DNA of 44,540 bases, from sequence record MZ576218; one strand, 5' to 3'. The notes under the pieces are model-generated. The model ran no database searches. It saw only the letters and a program-made list of their open reading frames with translations, and had not been told where the DNA came from. The position numbers were made by a program, and so were the translations under genes. Shown here piece by piece: positions 1-17,386 of this stretch. Numbering within the stretch: position 1 is the stretch's first letter; each line of letters begins with the position of its first letter. This DNA is from Escherichia phage vB_EcoS-phiEc4.

Positions 1-1251
1 ATGAGTATTCAGCTATCCGCACCACAGGCACTGTTCCTGAATTGCGATAACAAATACAAGGCCTATGTCGGAGGCTTCGGTAGCGGCAAGACATTTGTCG
101 GCTGTCTCGACCTGCTTACGTTCATGCTCCGGAACCCGGGTACCCGCCTGGGCTACTTCGGCCCCACCTACCCGGCTATCCGCGACATCTTCTACCCGAC
201 ATTCGAGGAAGCGGCTAACCTCCTCGGCCTCGATGTGCTGGTTAAATCTGGCGACAAAGAAGTCGTGGTCACTCGCGGTAAGACGGTGCTCGGAACTGTT
301 ATCTGCCGCTCGATGGATAACCCCGGCTCGATAGTCGGCTTCAAAATCGCGGCTGCGGTCGTGGATGAGCTGGACGTATTGAGCCGTGAGAAAGCCGAGC
401 TGGCGTGGAACAAAATCGTAGCCCGCATGCGTCTGGTTATCCCGGGGGTAATTAACCACATCTCCGTCACCACGACTCCGGAAGGGTTCAAGTTCGTTTA
501 CGCCAAGTTCAAGGAGAACCCGACGCCGAGTTACTCAATGGTGCAGGCGTCCACTCACGAGAACGCCAGATTCCTGCCGCCGGATTACATTAGCTCGCTG
601 ACTGAGACTTACCCGGCGCAACTGATTAACGCGTATCTGAACGGTGAGTTTGTCAACCTGACATCCGGAAGCGTGTATTACGCATACGACCGACGCAAGC
701 ACCGCAGCAAAGAGACAATTCAACCGGGCGACACGCTGTACATCGGGCAGGACTTCAACGTTACGAAGAACGCCAGCGCCGTGTATGTGCAGCGTAAAGA
801 TGGATGGCACGCGGTTGCAGAACTGAAGGGCCTGTTCGATACGCCGGACACCGTGCGCGTAATTACCGAGAAGTGGAAGTCACAAGGCCACCGCATCGTC
901 GTTTACCCCGACGCTAGCGGCAAGAACCGTAAGACAAACTCGGCGTCAATCTCTGATATTGCATTACTCCAGCAGGCGGGTTTCGATGTTCGCGCTAAAT
1001 CAGCCAACCCCCCGGTTAAAGACCGCGTTTTAGCCGTGAACACCGCGCTGGAAAAAGGTAAGCTGTGGGTTAATGACCACTTATGTCCTGAGATAGCCAA
1101 GACGCTGGAACAGCAGGCATACGACGATAACGGAGAGCCGGCTAAAGACGGCGTCATTGACCATATGGCTGATGCTCTCGGCTATCCTGTAGTTTATGAG
1201 ATGCCGGTGGTTAAACCAGTAATCAACATCCCGGTGACTTTCGCACTTTAA
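1..1251 (+). CDS. terL: terminase large subunit
   Basis: 416 aa; Walker A GGFGSGKT near N-terminus; lies immediately after the terS fragment at the window end (circular permutation) and before portal. Confidence 0.85.
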   Translation: MSIQLSAPQALFLNCDNKYKAYVGGFGSGKTFVGCLDLLTFMLRNPGTRLGYFGPTYPAIRDIFYPTFEEAANLLGLDVLVKSGDKEVVVTRGKTVLGTVICRSMDNPGSIVGFKIAAAVVDELDVLSREKAELAWNKIVARMRLVIPGVINHISVTTTPEGFKFVYAKFKENPTPSYSMVQASTHENARFLPPDYISSLTETYPAQLINAYLNGEFVNLTSGSVYYAYDRRKHRSKETIQPGDTLYIGQDFNVTKNASAVYVQRKDGWHAVAELKGLFDTPDTVRVITEKWKSQGHRIVVYPDASGKNRKTNSASISDIALLQQAGFDVRAKSANPPVKDRVLAVNTALEKGKLWVNDHLCPEIAKTLEQQAYDDNGEPAKDGVIDHMADALGYPVVYEMPVVKPVINIPVTFAL

Positions 1252-9333: not shown

Positions 9334-9692
9334 TGAGCACAGCTTTCAGTAAACGTATGCAAGGCGTAGGTACACGCCTGTTAACCAAATTCGGTAGCAC
9401 GGTATCTCTGATTCGCGCTGGCTCGAAAGTGTGGGATGAAGTTCTCGGTGAGTACGTCTGGTCTGCGGATGAAGTGTTGCCGTTGAAGGCCGTTCCGGTT
9501 CCTGTTAATGCGGGTCTGGTGAACGGTACGACGATTCAGGCTGGTGACATGATTGTTAAAGCCGATTACAGCGTCGTTCCTAAGATGGAAGACAAAGTGC
9601 AATTCGGCGGCGAGCAATGGTCCGTCGTAGCCATTGAGAAGAAGGTGGTTAACGATGATGTTGTGTCCTACTTTATTCAGGTGAGAAAATGA
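9333..9692 (+). CDS. head closure / neck protein
   Basis: track ORF 9279..9692; likely start ATG 9333 with GGAGG RBS and ATGA overlap with previous stop. Confidence 0.45.
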   Translation: MSTAFSKRMQGVGTRLLTKFGSTVSLIRAGSKVWDEVLGEYVWSADEVLPLKAVPVPVNAGLVNGTTIQAGDMIVKADYSVVPKMEDKVQFGGEQWSVVAIEKKVVNDDVVSYFIQVRK

Positions 9693-10084
9693 GTTTCGCG
9701 CTGGACGTCTCTAAGTTCGTGGAAAAGGCGAAGAAGAACCCTGAGAAGGTGATGCGTCAGGTGTCTATCAAGCTGTTTTCCGCTATCATAAAGGCGAGTC
9801 CGGTAGATACAGGCCGCTTTCGTATGAACTGGATGGCGTCTGGCGGCACTCCCGCCTCGGGGATTACGGATGGTACGGATAAATCAGGAAACACAGCAAC
9901 CGGAAACGCTACAAGTTTCGTACTGAAAGCCGCCGACTGGCACGAGTTTACACTGACAAATAACCTGCCGTATGCGCAACGGCTGGAGTATGGCTGGTCG
10001 CAACAGGCCCCCGCCGGGATGGTCAGGACTAATGTGTCTCGCTTCCAGCAACTCATTAACGAAGAAACCAACAAGGTGAAATGA
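9689..10084 (+). CDS. tail completion protein (HK97 gp10-like)
   Basis: 131 aa with VDTGRFRMNW motif characteristic of HK97 gp10 family. Confidence 0.6.
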   Translation: MSFALDVSKFVEKAKKNPEKVMRQVSIKLFSAIIKASPVDTGRFRMNWMASGGTPASGITDGTDKSGNTATGNATSFVLKAADWHEFTLTNNLPYAQRLEYGWSQQAPAGMVRTNVSRFQQLINEETNKVK

Positions 10085-10497
10085 TGGGCTACTTTGAGGA
10101 CTTAACAAAAGCGTTCGATGTGCCACTGGTAGCCTTCGGAACAGCAAACGGCATAAAGGTAGCGCTTGAAAACATCGACGCGCCGACGTCAACAGATACG
10201 CCGTATCTGGCAAGTTACATGTTGCTGGCGGATACCGAGCAGGCTGACTTATTCTTCACGGAACAACGCGCCGGTGTCTATCAGATAGACATTAACTACG
10301 CATCGGTGAAAGGTAGCGCGCCAATCAATAAAATGGCAGACTTACTTAACACGGCGTTTAAAGCAGGTAAGTCATTTTCACGTAACGACATCTGCGCCGA
10401 GGTTCAATCGGTAAGCCTGGGGCCGCTGATTGTAGAAAACGGATGGGCCAAAAGACCATTGTCAATTAACTTTATTGCATTCACCAAGAGGCTGTGA
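10081..10497 (+). CDS. tail terminator protein
   Basis: 138 aa immediately upstream of major tail protein gene; position-based. Confidence 0.45.
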   Translation: MMGYFEDLTKAFDVPLVAFGTANGIKVALENIDAPTSTDTPYLASYMLLADTEQADLFFTEQRAGVYQIDINYASVKGSAPINKMADLLNTAFKAGKSFSRNDICAEVQSVSLGPLIVENGWAKRPLSINFIAFTKRL

Positions 10498-11666
10498 ATA
10501 TGGCTACAACTCCTTTTAAGGGCGCGAATACCGCGCAATTCTATGTGGCGGAAGTGACCCCGGGCGTAACACCGGCTAACCCGGTATGGTCGCCGTTGCG
10601 CAACACGGGCGGCGTTCCTGCCATTACCCGCGACACGCTGACCTCCAACGAACTTGACGGCAGCCGAGAAACCACATCCATCCGCACCGGTAACAAGCAG
10701 GTTAGCGGAGAATACGCTATTGAGCTTAGCTCTAAAAGTCAGGACGACTGGTTAGCCGGGGCTTTAGGCTCTACGTGGCAATCCGGCGTTTCCCTGTCAG
10801 GACTATCGATTACCGTCGCACCCGCGGGCAAGACGTTCACACGCGCTACCGGCAGTTTTATCACTGACGGAGTTGGGGTAGGCGACCTGATTGCGTTTAC
10901 CGATTTAACAGGCGATAACGCAAAACCATTTATTGTTACTGCAGTAACGGCTACGGTTGTTACTGGTGCGGGCATCCAACACACCCTGACCACCGAGACA
11001 AAAACTAGTAAGGCTAAAACTGGCGACACGTTGGAAACCGGTAACACGTGTAAGACGTTCTCTATCCTTACCTGGTACAAAGGCCAGTGCGGCGGTACTG
11101 ACGCGTACACGTTAACCAAAGGCGTGGAAGTTTCTGGTTTTACCATCGAACAGGCTGTTAACGCGATGGTAACTGGCAGCTTCCCATTCATCGGTCGCAG
11201 TCAGGAGATTCTCACTACGCCGCCGACCGGTTCCAACTTCTCATCTGTTACTTTTGGTGATGAGCCGTTCTCTTCGGTTGACGTTTCCGTGTTCGATGGC
11301 TCTACGCCGTTGCGTTGTGATAGCCTTACCATCACCAACGACAACAGCGCGTCCGCGCAGTTCGAACTCGGCAACTCTAACGTTGCGTTTGTGGAACGTA
11401 GCCGCGCAGCTAACACCTTCTCCATCTCCGGTAAGCTGTATGACATGGCTATGATTCAGAAGTTTATCAACGAGCAGCAGGTAGAGATTAACTCTATTCT
11501 GGCAGGGGTAAACGGGGCTATGTCTTTCAGTTTGAAACGTGCAGAGCTTACGGCGGTTACACCAGAGATTGGCGGACCCGAGTCAATCACTCAGTCCATT
11601 GAGGGGCAGGCCACCGGCAACCAGTACCAGTCGTCTATCGTAATTCAACGTATCACCTACGCATAA
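10494..11666 (+). CDS. major tail protein
   Basis: 390 aa, Thr/Gly/Ser-rich beta-type sequence; followed by strong terminator; upstream of chaperone and tape measure genes. Confidence 0.7.
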   Translation: MNMATTPFKGANTAQFYVAEVTPGVTPANPVWSPLRNTGGVPAITRDTLTSNELDGSRETTSIRTGNKQVSGEYAIELSSKSQDDWLAGALGSTWQSGVSLSGLSITVAPAGKTFTRATGSFITDGVGVGDLIAFTDLTGDNAKPFIVTAVTATVVTGAGIQHTLTTETKTSKAKTGDTLETGNTCKTFSILTWYKGQCGGTDAYTLTKGVEVSGFTIEQAVNAMVTGSFPFIGRSQEILTTPPTGSNFSSVTFGDEPFSSVDVSVFDGSTPLRCDSLTITNDNSASAQFELGNSNVAFVERSRAANTFSISGKLYDMAMIQKFINEQQVEINSILAGVNGAMSFSLKRAELTAVTPEIGGPESITQSIEGQATGNQYQSSIVIQRITYA

Positions 11667-11671
11667 AACTA

Positions 11672-11697
11672 AGGCCCCTTTCGGGGCCTTTTTCTTA
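11672..11697. terminator. bidirectional rho-independent terminator
   Basis: AGGCCCC-TTTC-GGGGCCT followed by TTTTTCTT; between convergent major tail gene (+) and kinase gene (-). Confidence 0.75.
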
Positions 11698-12249
11698 CAA
11701 ACCTAATTTTAAAGCAATGTCTATAACGTTCGATTTAACGTCACCCGGTATGATGTAGGTGTCGTAATCTTTTACACCACTAACATCATACAGATAGCCA
11801 CGGCTATCGCCGATGAACGTATAGCCGTCACGATGGAGGCGAACGATTTGCACGTCATGCCCTGCGGCGACGATAGGGGCAACTTCACTGGCGAATCCAC
11901 CGTCGGACACTACAAAAACTTCGTCGCCGTCAGGCAAGTTTTCAGCAAGATACTTACCGAAATAATCATCGCCGAATACCGGTTTAATGAATTGCTCAGA
12001 AATGGCAATCATTAACTGGCGGCGGGACAACCCATTAAGAAAACCCTCGGGTTTTTCTTTCCGCGCCCGGTCGTCGTAGCCGTCGAGAAATTCGTGGTAA
12101 GCATCCTGGCCTAACGCTGCCAAAGCAATATTGAACATTGGATTCTTGAAACTGGTAGTTCCTTTCGCAAAGCCCATTTCTACCAGCGCCATAGCAAGCG
12201 TGTCTTTCCCGCAACCCGCAGGGCCATTAAGAATAATTACCTTAGCCAT
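11695..12249 (-). CDS. P-loop kinase, deoxynucleoside monophosphate kinase-like
   Basis: 184 aa; Walker A GPAGCGKDT; LSRRQLMIAISEQ segment resembles T4 gp1 dNMP kinase; start overlaps upstream stop (TAATG). Confidence 0.55.
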   Translation of the reverse strand: MAKVIILNGPAGCGKDTLAMALVEMGFAKGTTSFKNPMFNIALAALGQDAYHEFLDGYDDRARKEKPEGFLNGLSRRQLMIAISEQFIKPVFGDDYFGKYLAENLPDGDEVFVVSDGGFASEVAPIVAAGHDVQIVRLHRDGYTFIGDSRGYLYDVSGVKDYDTYIIPGDVKSNVIDIALKLGL

Positions 12250-12737
12250 TATTTATCGCTCCCGTGTGGTTTTAAGTGTGTAGAGTTCCCGTTACAGTCG
12301 TATTCGGTAACTGCGTGTGCGGTTATGCCGAGGTCACGGAAATGCTTTATTACCGCTGGAGAGTCGTCGAACGCACACAAGATTCTTTCCAGTCCGAAAG
12401 CACGCAACACCTCTTCTTTAATTACGATGTCTTTTCTGTTGTCGTGTTTGCTGCGCATGATTAGCGTGTCAAACCTAACGTTATTCTCTCGTAACCATTC
12501 GCGAGTCTCCTCCTCAGCGTCATCACTTCGCCCGGTAAGGATAATTATAGTAAGTCCGGAATGCCACAGTACGCTACACAAATGGATATTGTCGTATATC
12601 GGAGCGTCATCTTTGCAGGCCATGTTAAATGGCTTCCACGCCCACGTTTCTCCGTAGTTATCTTTTGGTAACAGGTGTAAGCGATGGGTACCGTCGGCCA
12701 ATGTCCCGTCTAAATCGAAAATTACAATATCTTTCAT
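12249..12737 (-). CDS. HAD-family phosphatase, T4 polynucleotide kinase 3'-phosphatase domain-like
   Basis: 162 aa; HAD motif I FDLDGTL, motif II LTGR, DNRKD..KEE and AFDDS segments closely parallel the T4 Pnk phosphatase domain. Confidence 0.7.
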   Translation of the reverse strand: MKDIVIFDLDGTLADGTHRLHLLPKDNYGETWAWKPFNMACKDDAPIYDNIHLCSVLWHSGLTIIILTGRSDDAEEETREWLRENNVRFDTLIMRSKHDNRKDIVIKEEVLRAFGLERILCAFDDSPAVIKHFRDLGITAHAVTEYDCNGNSTHLKPHGSDK

Positions 12738-13864
12738 CCCAGCATCTCCGGTGAAATAGTTAAACGTGCGACCTCGCCATATTCGGCGCTATAAGTAATT
12801 ACATTTGCACTGCGGCCCGACATCCATCCGCCGCGAGAGGCGTAGGCGTCTTTAGCCGCTAAGGTGCGGTGTTGCTCAACAATCATGTTACGGCTTTCTA
12901 CAATCTTCTGGTGGTGCAGATGGCCTACGTGGGCGTAGCTGTAAACACTCTCGCCGAACGCTTTACGGAACTTGGCAATCATAACCGGTTCGATAGCGTC
13001 GAATCGTGCTTTATGCCCGTGATGGAAGAACAGCGTCGTTTTGCCGTGTTGCACCATCTTGTAAACATCCGGCGACGTATCGACGAATACACGAGGCTCG
13101 TTGTCGTACAGTGTGCTGAACATCTCCGCCAGCCAAATCATCCCGGATTCGTCGTGGTTCCCCTGAACTATAAGCAAGCGAACAGTTTTATGCTTAACCA
13201 GAGCCATATCAACAACACGGCGGACCATGCGAATCATGTAGCGGACAAGTTTCTGGTAACGCGTGTCGGCGTCAAGGACATGACCACTCGCCGGTGTAAC
13301 GGCGTCAAGACTATCGAAGTGAGCTAAGTCGCCAAGAAGATTAATAACCCCCGTACCTGCATCCGGTGCTTTCTGAAACGCAGCATCAAACCAACGAGAG
13401 AATAAGTCCTCCGCGATTTTCATATCCCAGTCGTCGCCGCTCTCGTCAGCCCAGGCTAACATACCGAGATGGAAATCAGATACCGTGTAAAGATTGAGTA
13501 GTTTATCGTCACGTTTGGCTCGTGCCGGTTTAACAGGCGCAACGGGCGTAATCTCTGACTTCATGCCCTCTATTACGGCTTTCATCAATTCAACCTGACG
13601 TTCGGCATCAGCGTCGGTCTTAACCCATTGCAACTTAGTGTTGCCGAACTCGTCCACCAGGGACGACGTTCCTTTAATCTTGTAACCGTCTGGTACAAGG
13701 TGACTAACGTCGCGCCCGTGGCCTACGCCTTTCTTAGCCAGCTTCGCTTTACGGATTCGGATAACGCGGTCTGAGATTCCGTATTTACGGGCGATATCGA
13801 TATTCTTCATCCCGGCGTTCAATTCTTCCTGTAATTGCTCGTCGGTTATTTTCTTCTGGGCCAT
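12734..13864 (-). CDS. HTH domain fused to calcineurin-like metallophosphoesterase (SbcD/Mre11-like motifs)
   Basis: track ORF 12734..13969; likely start ATG 13864 with RBS GAGGAAG; motifs SDFHLG, GDLAHFD, GNHDE, HHGH, GHLHH; N-terminal basic HTH-like segment. Confidence 0.65.
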   Translation of the reverse strand: MAQKKITDEQLQEELNAGMKNIDIARKYGISDRVIRIRKAKLAKKGVGHGRDVSHLVPDGYKIKGTSSLVDEFGNTKLQWVKTDADAERQVELMKAVIEGMKSEITPVAPVKPARAKRDDKLLNLYTVSDFHLGMLAWADESGDDWDMKIAEDLFSRWFDAAFQKAPDAGTGVINLLGDLAHFDSLDAVTPASGHVLDADTRYQKLVRYMIRMVRRVVDMALVKHKTVRLLIVQGNHDESGMIWLAEMFSTLYDNEPRVFVDTSPDVYKMVQHGKTTLFFHHGHKARFDAIEPVMIAKFRKAFGESVYSYAHVGHLHHQKIVESRNMIVEQHRTLAAKDAYASRGGWMSGRSANVITYSAEYGEVARLTISPEMLG

Positions 13865-13902
13865 GCTTACTTCCTCGTGTTTAGGATTTGTCTTATAGTA
13901 GC

Positions 13903-14094
13903 CTACTTCTCTTTCACGTTCGAGTTGCAAGCCCAGATTAAAATGAATACCCACGGCAACAGAATCCACCCGAGAAATAAGTTAGCCATGAATATCGCCA
14001 GCTTTGCTTTATGGTTACGCATATGTGCCACCAAAAACGGGATAAAATAAACGGCTACAAAAATAATTAAGAAGAACATAGTGATACCGGTCAT
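13903..14094 (-). CDS. superinfection immunity (Imm-like) small membrane protein
   Basis: track ORF 13903..14121; likely start ATG 14094 with RBS AGGAG; pattern IPFLVAHMRNH...NLFLGWILLPW...LIWA resembles the small superinfection-immunity family as recalled. Confidence 0.6.
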   Translation of the reverse strand: MTGITMFFLIIFVAVYFIPFLVAHMRNHKAKLAIFMANLFLGWILLPWVFILIWACNSNVKEK

Positions 14095-14136
14095 AACATA
14101 ACTCCTGATTTGAGATAACATCGTTGGTGTAAGTGA

Positions 14137-14272: not shown

Positions 14273-14689
14273 ATGAAACTTTCTGATTTTTATTACGAAG
14301 CGGAAGCCGAAAAGGGCGCACGTATGCCGATACCGCTAAAAGACGGTACTGATTCCGGGGAATGGCTTAATGTTGTTTCTCCTGAGGCGGACGTTGCCGT
14401 TAAGGCTATGCGCGCGTTCACCCTTGCATACCGGGCAGTATTAGGGAAATTAAAACCGCTTCGTGATAAGTGCGAAGAGATGAAAGATTTCTCTGAATAC
14501 AACCTGAAGATGGAAGACGCGGCGACGGACCTTAACCGTCAGTTAGCGATTGAATTGGTTAACGGGTGGAGCCTTGACGACGAATTCAATAAAGAGAATC
14601 TGAACACACTCCTGACGCAATATAAACGACTCGCGGAACTTGTTGTTGTGTTTCATAACGAACAACTGCACCAGCTACAGGAAAAGTAG
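14273..14689 (+). CDS. tail assembly chaperone (G-like)
   Basis: 138 aa immediately upstream of tape measure gene; followed by -1 frame ORF lacking its own RBS. Confidence 0.55.
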   Translation: MKLSDFYYEAEAEKGARMPIPLKDGTDSGEWLNVVSPEADVAVKAMRAFTLAYRAVLGKLKPLRDKCEEMKDFSEYNLKMEDAATDLNRQLAIELVNGWSLDDEFNKENLNTLLTQYKRLAELVVVFHNEQLHQLQEK

Positions 14690-14694
14690 ACGCG

Positions 14695-15054
14695 TTGCTC
14701 CAGTTCGCCCGTTGGAACTTCATAACCCGCCACAAACGGCGGGAATTTGACAGTATCGCCGATGGGCATAAAGCCGCGCTAATTGCTATGGGGGTTATGC
14801 AAGACGCGCCGGATGCAACGCAGGCCGCTGGGCCGGAATGCCCCCCTGAGCTACTAACCACATTTGAGAAGTACAGGGAAATTAAATTCACCCGCCGAGT
14901 GGACGACGACGGCATCAAGATGTACCCGCGCGAGCAATTACGATGGTCAGATTTAGTGGCGTACAGCACCGTTTCAGGCCAGAATATAGGGATGTTCGAA
15001 TCCGACATCATCATGAGCTTAGACGCTATTTTCGAGGGTAGAAACGATGGCTGA
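14695..15054 (+). CDS. tail assembly chaperone T-domain, probably expressed as G-T fusion by -1 frameshift
   Basis: -1 frame relative to 14273..14689; frame open from 14659; near-slippery GGAAAAG at 14680..14686; no ATG or SD at its 5' end. Confidence 0.45.
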   Translation: MLQFARWNFITRHKRREFDSIADGHKAALIAMGVMQDAPDATQAAGPECPPELLTTFEKYREIKFTRRVDDDGIKMYPREQLRWSDLVAYSTVSGQNIGMFESDIIMSLDAIFEGRNDG

Positions 15055-17386
15055 TGTAGCTAGTTTAGTAGTAAAAGTAACAGAGCAAGGCGCGAAAGCC
15101 ACATCAGACCGTCTTGACAACCTTTCAAAGTCCGCAAAAGTAGCGGGGGCCGCCGTAGCAGGCCTTGCTTCTATCGTAGCGGCTACCGCGTATAAAGCTG
15201 CCCAAGAACTGGTTGACTCACAGCGGCAACTGGACAAGATGTCCGCCAGTTTGAAGACCTTAACAGGAAGTACCCAAGGTGCTAAACAGGCGCTAAGTAT
15301 CCTGCAAGATTTTGCCCGCGATACCCCATACGGACTGGAGCAGGCGGTGGAAGGCTTCCGTAAGCTGGTGGCCCTTGGCCTTACCCCATCCGAGGAGGCG
15401 TTGCGGTCCTACGGCAATACCGCATCGGCTATGGGCAAGGACCTTAATCAGATGATTGAGGCGGTAGCCGACGCCAGTACGTTTGAGTTCGAACGCCTAA
15501 AAGAATTCGGCATCAAAGCCAAGCAGAACAAAAACGACGTAGAGTTTACATTCCAGGGGACAACAACCGTAGTTAAGAAAAGCGCTGCCGATATTGAGCA
15601 GTATTTACTTAATATTGGTAACGTAAATTTTGCCGGTGCCATGGCGGACCAGGCCAACACCCTTAATGGCGCTATCGCGAGCGCCAGTGACTCATGGTCG
15701 CAGCTAAAAATGACGCTTGCCACCAGTCTTGATGTTGGCGCACTTGCGGAACCTATCAGGTATATCGATGACTTGATCCAGGAATTAAACGCGTCTGTTG
15801 CTTCCGGTGAATTAGCCGCTGAAATGCAGATGTGGGGCGACATAGCGTCGGAAGTAGGAAGCGCTATCGAGATGTCATTCGACGCTGCGTTTGGCTTTGT
15901 TGGTGATGCCATCAACGGGCTTAATGAACTGTGGGATTTCAGCAGCAAGAGTATTACCGATAGCGGAGAACAAACGGCCACCACCATCGCTGAATCCGCC
16001 GCCGATGCTCTTGACTTCATCGCGGAAGAGTTCACCGCGATGGAGAGATTCTTTGAAGATATGGTTAAAGGTGCTCAGGACGCTGGCCGTCTTGTACGCG
16101 CCGCTTTTACCCCCGGGGAATCAGTAGACGTAGCTAAAAATATCAACTTCCAGCTTGGCATGGCTTTGGATACCCAGCGCGATGTCGCCGACGTTACGCG
16201 TAAAAGTTTCCGCGAACAGGTAGAAGCTCAACAGGATATTGTAGCGTTAAAACGCGCGGCGTATGACATCGATAAGGAGTCCGCAAAAGCTGAGGGGTTA
16301 AACAAATTTAAGGTAACCGGAACCGGCGGCGGTTCTGACGATGACGGGTCAGCCGCAAAAGCCGCTAAGAAAGCAGCGGACGCGTTCGAGCGCCAGAAAA
16401 AGGCGGCGGAAGACTTCTACTATCAGTCAATCCATCTTAATGATGACGTATTTCAGAAAATAGAAGCTAACCAGGAAGAGCAACTGTCTAAGTTGCAGGA
16501 TTTTTATAGCAATAAGCTTCTTAGCGACCAACAGTACGAAAACGCCAAGACGCAGATTATGCTCTCTGCCGAACAGGCCCGCCAGGAAGAACTGGACAAG
16601 AAAAGGAAAGAAGCCCAGGAGAAGCAGCAGAAAGGTGATGATTTCATGGCTCAGATTATGGGCCAGAACGCCACCGAGCTTGAGCTTCTGGATATTCAGG
16701 AACAGCAGAAACTGGCGGTAGCCGATAAGTACCGGGAACAAGGTCTGATTAGCGAGAAGCAGTATCAGGCCGCGCTTAACGCCATCAACGAGCAGTACGC
16801 AACCAAGCGTGCCGACGCAACGGCAACAGCTTTCGGTAACATGGCTTCAAACATCGGGTCTGCGTTGGGCGAGGCTTCTGGTGCGTACAAGGCATTCGCT
16901 ATCGTACAGGCCACTATAGCCACGTACACCGCAGCTATCGAGGCGTACAAGTCAACGGCTGCTATCCCTGTTGTTGGCCCGTTCCTGGCCCCTGTAGCCG
17001 CTGCCGCTGCCGTCGGGGCAGGTATGGCGCAGATTTCCGCTATCAGGTCAGCACGTGAACAGGGTGGACAGTTATCCGCCGGGCAGGCTTCCACCATCGC
17101 TGAACGCGGTAAACCCGAAGTTATCATGCCCGCTGGCGCATCGCGTGTGCGCACCGCGCAGCAGATGAAAGAAATTATGGGGCAAAACGGGTCTTCTTCC
17201 GGCCCATCTAATGTTACCATTGTAAATAATACATCGAGTCAGATTGGCAACGTATCCACCGAGCAGGATGATGAAGGCCGTCTGCGTATCATCATAGAAG
17301 AGCAAGTTGCTGCATCTTTGCAGAACAGCAACAGTAAGATTAGCAAGGCCCGCAAGGCCACAAGAAACGCGCCGGGGTTTAAATAA
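15047..17386 (+). CDS. tail tape measure protein
   Basis: 779 aa, Ala/Gln/Glu-rich coiled-coil-like sequence, downstream of chaperone pair. Confidence 0.8.
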   Translation: MADVASLVVKVTEQGAKATSDRLDNLSKSAKVAGAAVAGLASIVAATAYKAAQELVDSQRQLDKMSASLKTLTGSTQGAKQALSILQDFARDTPYGLEQAVEGFRKLVALGLTPSEEALRSYGNTASAMGKDLNQMIEAVADASTFEFERLKEFGIKAKQNKNDVEFTFQGTTTVVKKSAADIEQYLLNIGNVNFAGAMADQANTLNGAIASASDSWSQLKMTLATSLDVGALAEPIRYIDDLIQELNASVASGELAAEMQMWGDIASEVGSAIEMSFDAAFGFVGDAINGLNELWDFSSKSITDSGEQTATTIAESAADALDFIAEEFTAMERFFEDMVKGAQDAGRLVRAAFTPGESVDVAKNINFQLGMALDTQRDVADVTRKSFREQVEAQQDIVALKRAAYDIDKESAKAEGLNKFKVTGTGGGSDDDGSAAKAAKKAADAFERQKKAAEDFYYQSIHLNDDVFQKIEANQEEQLSKLQDFYSNKLLSDQQYENAKTQIMLSAEQARQEELDKKRKEAQEKQQKGDDFMAQIMGQNATELELLDIQEQQKLAVADKYREQGLISEKQYQAALNAINEQYATKRADATATAFGNMASNIGSALGEASGAYKAFAIVQATIATYTAAIEAYKSTAAIPVVGPFLAPVAAAAAVGAGMAQISAIRSAREQGGQLSAGQASTIAERGKPEVIMPAGASRVRTAQQMKEIMGQNGSSSGPSNVTIVNNTSSQIGNVSTEQDDEGRLRIIIEEQVAASLQNSNSKISKARKATRNAPGFK

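Follow-up and report, generated by a model that had tools for sequence, protein, structure and literature searches.

Results

The chaperone locus and its two reading frames

The analysis concerned the junction of two overlapping open reading frames (ORFs) in a stretch of 44,540 nucleotides (nt) of Escherichia phage vB_EcoS-phiEc4 (sequence record MZ576218); this whole stretch is called the window below. The first ORF, gene G, and the second ORF, T, lie directly upstream of the tape measure protein gene, and very probably they are joined by a -1 ribosomal frameshift into a fusion protein, GT. The phage belongs to Kagunavirus (Guernseyvirinae), and its chaperone locus is 99.8-99.9% identical to those of the Escherichia phages phiEc3, SCS44 and Golestan. 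Phages of Escherichia and Salmonella (Jerseyvirus) account for more than 300 related records. The following features were found at the locus:

14273..14689, plus strand: gene G, tail assembly chaperone; ATG start, 138 amino acids (aa), 15.9 kDa, product of standard decoding
14656..14658, plus strand: TAA stop of the -1 frame, which closes the T frame upstream; the frame is open from 14659
14680..14686, plus strand: heptamer G_GAA_AAG, read in the 0 frame as (CA)G GAA AAG and followed by TAG; it is not of the type X_XXY_YYZ
14683..14686, plus strand: core slip tetramer A_AAG, on which the tRNA-Lys would pass from AAG (14684..14686) to AAA (14683..14685)
14687..14689, plus strand: 0-frame UAG stop, which immediately follows the slip codon; putative part of the signal, as an RF1-read and slowly decoded A-site codon
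14686..15054, plus strand: T segment, VDALLQFARW...EGRNDG, encoded by 122 codons of the -1 frame and closed by a TGA stop (15052..15054)
join(14273..14686,14686..15054), plus strand: GT fusion, predicted to have 260 aa and 29.8 kDa; the join comprises 782 nt
14695..14697, plus strand: TTG codon, start of a separate 119-aa ORF in the annotations of RefSeq Golestan and Shashou
15047..17386, plus strand: tape measure protein gene, 779 aa; match to phrog_1538 (E=4.2e-206)

Gene G is preceded by a Shine-Dalgarno (SD) sequence, AAGGA, 7 nt 5′ of its ATG, and it ends with CAG GAA AAG TAG. G and the open part of the -1 frame overlap by 31 nt. Because the -1 frame is closed by the TAA at 14656..14658 and G is closed by its own stop, a productive shift is limited to the region 14659..14689. 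At the other end of T, its stop codon and the ATG of the tape measure gene (15047) overlap within ATGGCTGA.

An initial annotation, which had been made from the sequence alone, had placed an ORF at 14695..15054 in the -1 frame relative to 14273..14689, with the frame open from 14659, and had located GGAAAAG at 14680..14686, in the overlap directly before the G stop and upstream of the tape measure gene. All these positions were reproduced. It had also stated that the second ORF has neither an ATG nor an SD sequence at its start. The ATG is indeed missing and the ORF starts with TTG, but an SD-like AGGA is present at 14679..14682, 12 nt upstream.

Both parts belong to families of tail assembly chaperones. 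G matched the Pfam family PF08748 (Phage_TAC_4, E=1.1e-7, 32.5 bits, cutoff 21.1) and two PHROGs families annotated as tail assembly chaperone, phrog_15027 (E=2.4e-50) and phrog_313 (E=4.2e-28). The -1 ORF matched PF23812 (Phage_TAC_18, E=1.8e-18, 66.9 bits, cutoff 27) and phrog_4557 (E=4e-62). The profile of phrog_15027 has 259 positions, of which 1-138 were covered by G and 136-259 by the -1 ORF, which indicated that this profile had been built from fused proteins that are joined exactly at the lysine codon. A comparison of GT with solved structures and with NCBIfam did not yield a significant match.

Conservation of the junction in related phages

Related loci were gathered with the G protein (27 loci) and with an alignment of the T part (69 loci from IMG/VR), and the GenBank records of the phages K1ind1, Shashou, fFiEco03, PhiSEP1 and Golestan were added to the comparison. 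The 67 loci with a complete region were grouped into 21 clusters at 88% nucleotide identity, and the cluster counts given below refer to this set. The T parts were between 100% and 37% identical to that of the window at the amino acid level.

The geometry of the junction was the same throughout. In every one of the 69 loci the G stop followed directly 3′ of the last lysine codon of G, and its first base lay 1 nt past the base that opens the first conserved T codon. The last sense codon of G was AAG in 20 of the 21 clusters and AAA in the remaining one. The penultimate codon always ended with A (GAA in 12 clusters, GCA in 6, and TCA, GTA and AAA in one cluster each), so that NNA AAR was invariant in all 21 clusters. 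Where the penultimate codon was GAA, the complete G_GAA_AAG was kept (12/12 clusters), and the codon in front of it could be CAG, CTG, TTG or GCG. The other heptamers at the junction were N_GCA_AAG, G_TCA_AAG and G_GTA_AAG, while canonical heptamers of the type X_XXY_YYZ were confined to a single sequence within a GAA cluster (L090, G_GGA_AAG) and to the most distant clade (L096-L099, A_AAA_AAA).

This codon choice differed from the usage in the remainder of the window. In the window genes A-ending codons made up 19% of GCN, 25% of TCN and 31% of GTN codons, and AAG made up 45% of the lysine codons. Judged by the codon usage, the restriction of the junction to NNA and AAG is not a matter of drift, even given the kinship of the lineages, because A-ending and AAG codons are far from exclusive in the window genes.

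The stop codon was also restricted. Sixteen clusters contained only TAG, two contained TAG and TAA, three contained only TAA, and TGA was not found in any of the 21 clusters. In a crude set of 54 ORFs of the window, the stops were TGA in 24 cases, TAA in 23 and TAG in 7, and a TGA at the junction would still allow valine (GTG) as the first residue of T. Within the alignment the adjacent stop is the only conserved flanking element, and its identity is evidently constrained.

At the protein level, the conservation in the -1 frame started at the codon right after the slip codon. The N-terminus of T was V-x-A-L (I-x-A-L in the AAA clade), and V1, A3 and L4 (V1 as isoleucine in that clade) did not vary in the alignment. 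T had an intact length of 121-125 codons in all relatives and always ended at the start of the tape measure gene. The -1 ORF lacks conserved initiation signals and is conserved from the first codon of T onwards. In several relatives a stop closed the -1 frame only 12-15 nt before T begins, and therefore a homologous shift must be confined to the last 4-5 codons of G.

These results bear on several claims of the initial annotation. A probable -1 frameshift that joins the two chaperone ORFs gained support from the gene order, the protein families and the conserved position of the slip (69 loci, 21 clusters). The proposal that the locus represents the conserved G/GT arrangement of long-tailed phages was borne out by the identical junction geometry in all 21 clusters, at T identities of 37-100%. 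The heptamer had been called near-canonical; here the slip site A_AAG held, but G_GAA_AAG is not an X_XXY_YYZ sequence, the penultimate codon varies (GAA, GCA, TCA, GTA, GGA, AAA), and the role of the heptamer had been overstated. A comparison of the heptamer with related phages had also been suggested. In this comparison A_AAG (or A_AAA) together with UAG or UAA proved to be invariant, while the full G_GAA_AAG was found only in the GAA clusters (12/21).

Variant junctions and one aberrant record

Several individual sequences deserve a separate description. The sequence L090 (IMGVR_UViG_2974654489_000001, positions 1193..1204), a Kagunavirus of the K1 type, reads CAG GGA AAG TAG and thus contains the heptamer of phage lambda, G_GGA_AAG. 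It differs from its cluster by a single base (GAA to GGA, glutamate to glycine), and therefore represents a natural mutant for comparing both signals. In the most distant clade (L096-L099, around positions 1192..1204; IMG/VR contigs 3300033072_000039, 3300020047_002410, 3300020029_000032 and 3300020049_000466), the T parts of which are 37-39% identical to that of the window, the junction reads GCA AAA AAA TAR and forms A_AAA_AAA within a run of seven A (GCAAAAAAATAR). Here the first T codon is AUA (isoleucine), which is rare in E. coli. A further variant was found at L027:1875..1917 and in L028 and L029, where an additional candidate site, (G/T)_GAA_AAG, is located four codons before the terminal GCA_AAG_TAG at a position at which the -1 frame is open. 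If both sites were used, GT variants that differ in four residues would result.

Salmonella phage SS3e (L025) was left out of the counts, because its G frame is broken at several places. In its record (NC_006940.2; L025 / L049) G is split into three frames, and the 0 frame already ends after 37 codons. Apart from this, its DNA shares about 82% identity with the window, and the junction CAG GAA AAG TAG is intact. The breaks are probably sequencing errors in an old record.

The slip site within the window

The heptamer as such is not rare. GGAAAAG occurred six times in the window, compared to 5.4 expected copies, and in-frame A_AAG was found 34 times in a crude gene set, compared to 57 expected occurrences (about 0.6-fold). 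The ORFs of at least 80 aa in the six frames contained 60 in-frame A_AAG sites altogether, and of these the site at 14684 alone had a 0-frame stop next to it. It was also the only one within a genuine gene that had a -1 extension of more than 100 codons, namely 122; three sites had longer -1 extensions, and all of them were located in spurious ORFs nested inside real genes. A second in-frame G_GAA_AAG, at 9721..9727 in the ORF 9689..10084, is not followed by a stop, and the 12 longest -1 extensions listed, which comprised 39 codons or more, did not include that of this copy. As this copy lacks such a context, the heptamer alone is no marker of a recoding site. The unusual thing about the site is its context, and not the heptamer itself.

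A proposed mechanism of frameshifting

The comparison made it highly probable that G and GT are produced by a -1 slip of the ribosome at A_AAG, at which the tRNA-Lys would move from AAG to AAA and GUA would be read next. Most ribosomes are expected to read CAG GAA AAG and to stop at the UAG (14687..14689), which would yield G with 138 aa. A minority would slip back by one base with the tRNA-Lys on AAG (14684..14686), which would re-pair with AAA (14683..14685). Thereafter the GUA at 14686..14688 would be read, and translation would continue for 122 codons until the UGA at 15052..15054, to give GT with 260 aa. The geometry of the junction and its conservation were both directly visible in the alignment, and the occurrence of the slip, as well as its frequency, is inferred. 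T would then be expressed solely as the C-terminal part of GT.

The effective signal would be the single-tRNA tetramer A_AAG together with a slow RF1-dependent decoding of the adjacent stop. While the peptidyl-tRNA-Lys occupies the P site and UAG the A site, the slip could take place, and the abundant tRNA-Val would capture the GUA afterwards. A single-tRNA slip assisted by the stop is favored because the GCA, TCA and GTA codons of the relatives cannot re-pair and because a stop that can be read by RF1 is invariably adjacent. In the lineages with G_GAA_AAG, a near-cognate re-pairing of tRNA-Glu from GAA to GGA may make a secondary contribution, which is suggested by the fact that heptamer position 1 is always G in the GAA lineages.

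Properties of the host translation apparatus are in line with such a slip. The 0-frame A_AAG at the shift position is a Z_ZZN tetranucleotide, and the host is E. coli, in which A_AAG is the most shift-prone of these tetramers (PMC4066793). E. coli has a single tRNA-Lys isoacceptor that reads both AAA and AAG, and it is weaker on AAG (PMC5009743, PMC6924986).

It is tempting to go one step further and to view the 7-nt unit A_AAG_UAR, in place of the heptamer, as the signal of the whole clade of chaperone genes, in Guernseyvirinae as well as in the metagenomic relatives. According to this tentative proposal, the P-site slip of the tRNA-Lys would be licensed by slow RF1-dependent termination at the adjacent UAG or UAA and would not involve an RNA structure.

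Findings that weigh against a frameshift

Several observations speak against a frameshift at this junction. Without a stimulator, A_AAG led to about 0.15% frameshifting in reporter assays, barely over background (PMC4066793). G_GAA_AAG was described as a 'less slippery' sequence, on which a reconstituted E. coli system yielded mainly the 0-frame product when EF-G was wild-type (PMC6924986). A stop codon after the HIV slippery site reduced frameshifting in E. coli, according to the account in PMC4373837, and therefore the stop at the phage junction is put forward here only as a putative stimulator. Phage Shashou was announced as having 'no canonical slippery sequence' (PMC6776780). A literature search did not retrieve protein-level data on G and GT for Guernseyvirinae. 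Furthermore, the lineages that were counted share ancestry, and the probabilities based on codon usage thus overstate their independence.

Likewise, the search for stimulatory elements was negative. An RNAalifold analysis of 27 diverse junctions yielded 0 consensus pairs. The best local minimum free energy at spacers of 3-9 nt was at the median of background windows from the same loci (percentile 0.53), and the values of nearly all relatives were average. A GGAGG-like SD element was not found in 14655..14679, and the columns upstream of the site were not conserved in the relatives. Hence the elements known from dnaX, IS911 and IS3-type sites, i.e., a conserved hairpin or pseudoknot at a distance of 5-9 nt and an SD-like element about 10 nt upstream, were not detected at the junction.

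The window itself contains a potential RNA structure further downstream. The region 14687..14790 was predicted to fold with -38.3 kcal/mol (z = -3.46), but for the extended context 14640..14760 the z value was only -1.5, so that the downstream fold is not robust. A hairpin with a perfect, GC-rich stem of 6 bp, CCCGCC-ACAAAC-GGCGGG, lies at 14727..14744 within the coding region of T, 40 nt 3′ of the slip site. The Golestan-like and fFiEco03-like phages share this hairpin, Jerseyvirus has a weakened form, and more distant relatives lack it. A downstream RNA structure was rejected as a general stimulator, because the hairpin is too distant and not conserved, and because of the lack of consensus pairs.

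Alternative explanations of the junction

As one alternative, two tRNAs might slip simultaneously on G_GAA_AAG during translocation, as in lambda, with the tRNA-Glu re-pairing with GGA and the tRNA-Lys with AAA, and the stop would merely end G. Heptamers exceed tetramers in efficiency by about 10-fold (PMC4066793), and the invariable G at position 1 in the 12 GAA clusters, the fully canonical G_GGA_AAG in one relative and the A_AAA_AAA of the distant clade would all fit such a double slip. However, eight clusters have GCA, TCA or GTA after C, G or A, which does not allow a -1 re-pairing of the upstream tRNA, and they nevertheless keep the arrangement. In addition, G_GAA_AAG acted as a one-tRNA site in vitro (PMC6924986). 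A simultaneous slip would also leave unexplained why the stop is invariably adjacent and why UGA is absent. Taken together, this explanation is considered rather unlikely.

Alternatively, T could be a separate gene that starts at the TTG at 14695, either with the AGGA as SD sequence or by termination and reinitiation 6 nt past the G stop. In this case a free T protein of 119 aa would be formed and no fusion. The records of RefSeq Golestan, fEg-Eco06 and Shashou are annotated in this way, the Shashou record marks the AGGA as ribosome binding site (RBS), public protein collections hold T in the 119-aa form, and the non-canonical heptamer at the junction would also favor two genes. However, TTG was found at T codon 4 in only 2 of the 21 clusters, i.e., that of the window and Jerseyvirus, while the others have CTG, and therefore independent initiation is unlikely. 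Elsewhere the first ATG, GTG or TTG of the T frame was located at codons 5-48, within strongly conserved stretches such as FDSIADGH-AAL-AMG. The residues V-x-A just before the TTG are conserved as protein, which would be unexplained if they were not translated. The distance of 12 nt between AGGA (14679..14682) and TTG is long for an SD sequence, and the invariant A_AAG and stop would serve no purpose. The TTG is thus probably not a functional start, and a separate T gene is very unlikely.

A slippage of the RNA polymerase, which would add or delete an A within the A run, is extremely improbable. The run of seven A in the most distant clade could be taken as an indication of it. Efficient polymerase slippage, a topic treated in PMC5009743, generally requires runs of roughly 8-9 or more, however, and the window and most relatives have only four (GGAAAAG) or three (GCAAAG). 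The preference for AAG over AAA as last codon in 20/21 clusters points to decoding by tRNA-Lys and not to the length of the run.

The remaining view, that the -1 ORF is a decaying or unexpressed remnant or that the two frames result from an assembly error, has a negligible probability and is effectively refuted by the conservation, as more than 300 phage genomes, each sequenced independently, share the two-frame arrangement and T is conserved as a protein over its whole length, down to 37% identity and up to the start of the tape measure gene.

Discussion

Comparison with known recoding systems

The frameshift in the tail chaperone genes of long-tailed phages is known to be conserved (Levin, Hendrix & Casjens 1993; Xu, Hendrix & Duda 2004; both cited in PMC5009743), and the locus shares the hallmarks of lambda gpG/gpGT and of other long-tailed phages. 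The overlapping ORFs lie directly before the tape measure gene, and the second one is in the -1 frame and lacks a start of its own. As in lambda, the shift would occur at an A_AAG lysine codon near the end of G, there is no evident RNA structure, and an abundant short product and a rare long product would be expected. The G:GT ratio of lambda is about 30:1 (PMC5009743). By analogy with lambda gpG/gpGT, the frequency of the slip would set this ratio in the window phage. The tape measure protein would be coated by G and by the G part of GT, and recruitment of the tail tube protein would be the task of the T part.

The systems also differ. Lambda is not known to have its G stop next to the slip site, whereas a stop is always adjacent in the relatives of the window phage. 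Lambda makes use of the canonical G_GGA_AAG with cognate re-pairing of two tRNAs, while the window has G_GAA_AAG. The protein families found here are PF08748 and PF23812, and no sequence similarity to lambda G and T is claimed. The closest counterparts are ORF21A/21B of phage K1ind1 (NC_041897) and the locus of fFiEco03 (MT711524), which have the same CAG GAA AAG TAG junction and the same joined coding sequence (CDS) of 782 nt.

The proposed slip of one tRNA-Lys from AAG to AAA, downstream of an A-ending codon that is not slippery itself, resembles the sites of IS3 (A_AAG with a pseudoknot), IS1222 (G_CGA_AAG) and the cdd gene of B. subtilis (A_CGA_AAG). These sites depend on a downstream pseudoknot or an SD-like stimulator. 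In contrast, the phage junction has no conserved structure or SD-like element, and the stop is its only conserved flank. NNA_AAG is used in IS1222 and is present in B. subtilis cdd (PMC5009743; for slippage of a single tRNA-Lys also PMC4066793). The dnaX gene of E. coli (A_AAA_AAG) likewise exploits the single tRNA-Lys, which is weak on AAG (PMC6924986, PMC5009743). However, dnaX reaches about 50% shift with a full heptamer that is flanked by an SD-like element on its 5′ side and by a hairpin on its 3′ side, and these stimulators are missing in the window.

A 0-frame stop right after the slip site has precedents in the gag-pol junction of Rous sarcoma virus, in barley yellow dwarf virus and in the 'shifty stops' of Weiss et al. 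1987 (PMC4373837). The two viral examples differ from the phage junction, as they are eukaryotic-virus heptamers with strong downstream structures, and there, too, the stop may either stimulate the shift or just coincide with the site.

Neighboring genes

The order of the genes agrees with that of other G/GT chaperone loci, with the caveat that a block of minus-strand genes lies between the tail tube gene and G, which is a further difference from lambda. The tail tube gene is located as follows:

10494..11666, plus strand: tail tube protein gene; match to PF18906 (Phage_tube_2, E=4.3e-37)

By analogy with lambda, its product is the expected binding partner of the T domain. The block consists of four minus-strand genes (11695..14121, about 2.4 kb), which break the plus-strand tail module. 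Three of them encode enzyme-type products, namely a kinase-like protein (184 aa), a polynucleotide kinase/HAD phosphatase (162 aa) and a metallophosphoesterase or 'DNA repair exonuclease' (411 aa), and the fourth encodes a membrane protein for superinfection immunity (Imm-like, 72 aa).

Annotation of the locus and implications

The feature is real but already known, since it is the ordinary G/GT frameshift of long-tailed phages, and there is little new about it as such; the one unusual trait is its minimal slip signal, in which A_AAG with a stop right behind it takes the place of a standard heptamer. Joined GT products have been annotated in congeners, i.e., in K1ind1 (RefSeq NC_041897.1), in fFiEco03 (MT711524.1, as 'frameshift product') and, according to the feature listing, in NC_073317.1. 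Other records deviate from this. In RefSeq Golestan and fEg-Eco06 the chaperone is given as two CDS, the records of phiEc3 and many of Jerseyvirus do likewise or contain a 'hypothetical protein' that starts at TTG, and in PhiSEP1 T was started at an internal ATG. The records NC_042084.1, PQ141284.1, MK931440.1 and OL944021.1 comprise the same locus with inconsistent annotations (two CDS; a TTG start with an RBS in the slip site; an internal ATG). The Golestan paper names ORF27 (DUF1833) as tail assembly chaperone and does not mention ORF23/24 or a frameshift (PMC7203180). A literature search did not retrieve a paper that joins 'Kagunavirus', 'frameshift' and 'tail assembly chaperone'. The exact 260-aa fusion was absent from a collection of 15 billion proteins, which contains the 138-aa and the 119-aa ORFs. 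According to the comparative evidence, the correct annotation would be the joined GT of 260 aa, join(14273..14686,14686..15054).

The picture of phage tail assembly is left unchanged by these results. A modestly new point, which emerged from the alignment, is the apparent family-wide signature of A_AAG followed by UAG or UAA, without an RNA structure. The phages offer a natural series at one and the same position (G_GAA_AAG, N_GCA_AAG, G_GGA_AAG and A_AAA_AAA, each with UAG or UAA), which could be used to gauge the effects of the stop and of the upstream codon. If A_AAG_UAR were indeed the signal, this would account for the disagreement of annotators over the presence of a slippery sequence, and the junction would represent a natural, structure-free bacterial '-1 shifty stop', the efficiency of which would be tuned by the activity of RF1 and by the codon in the E site.

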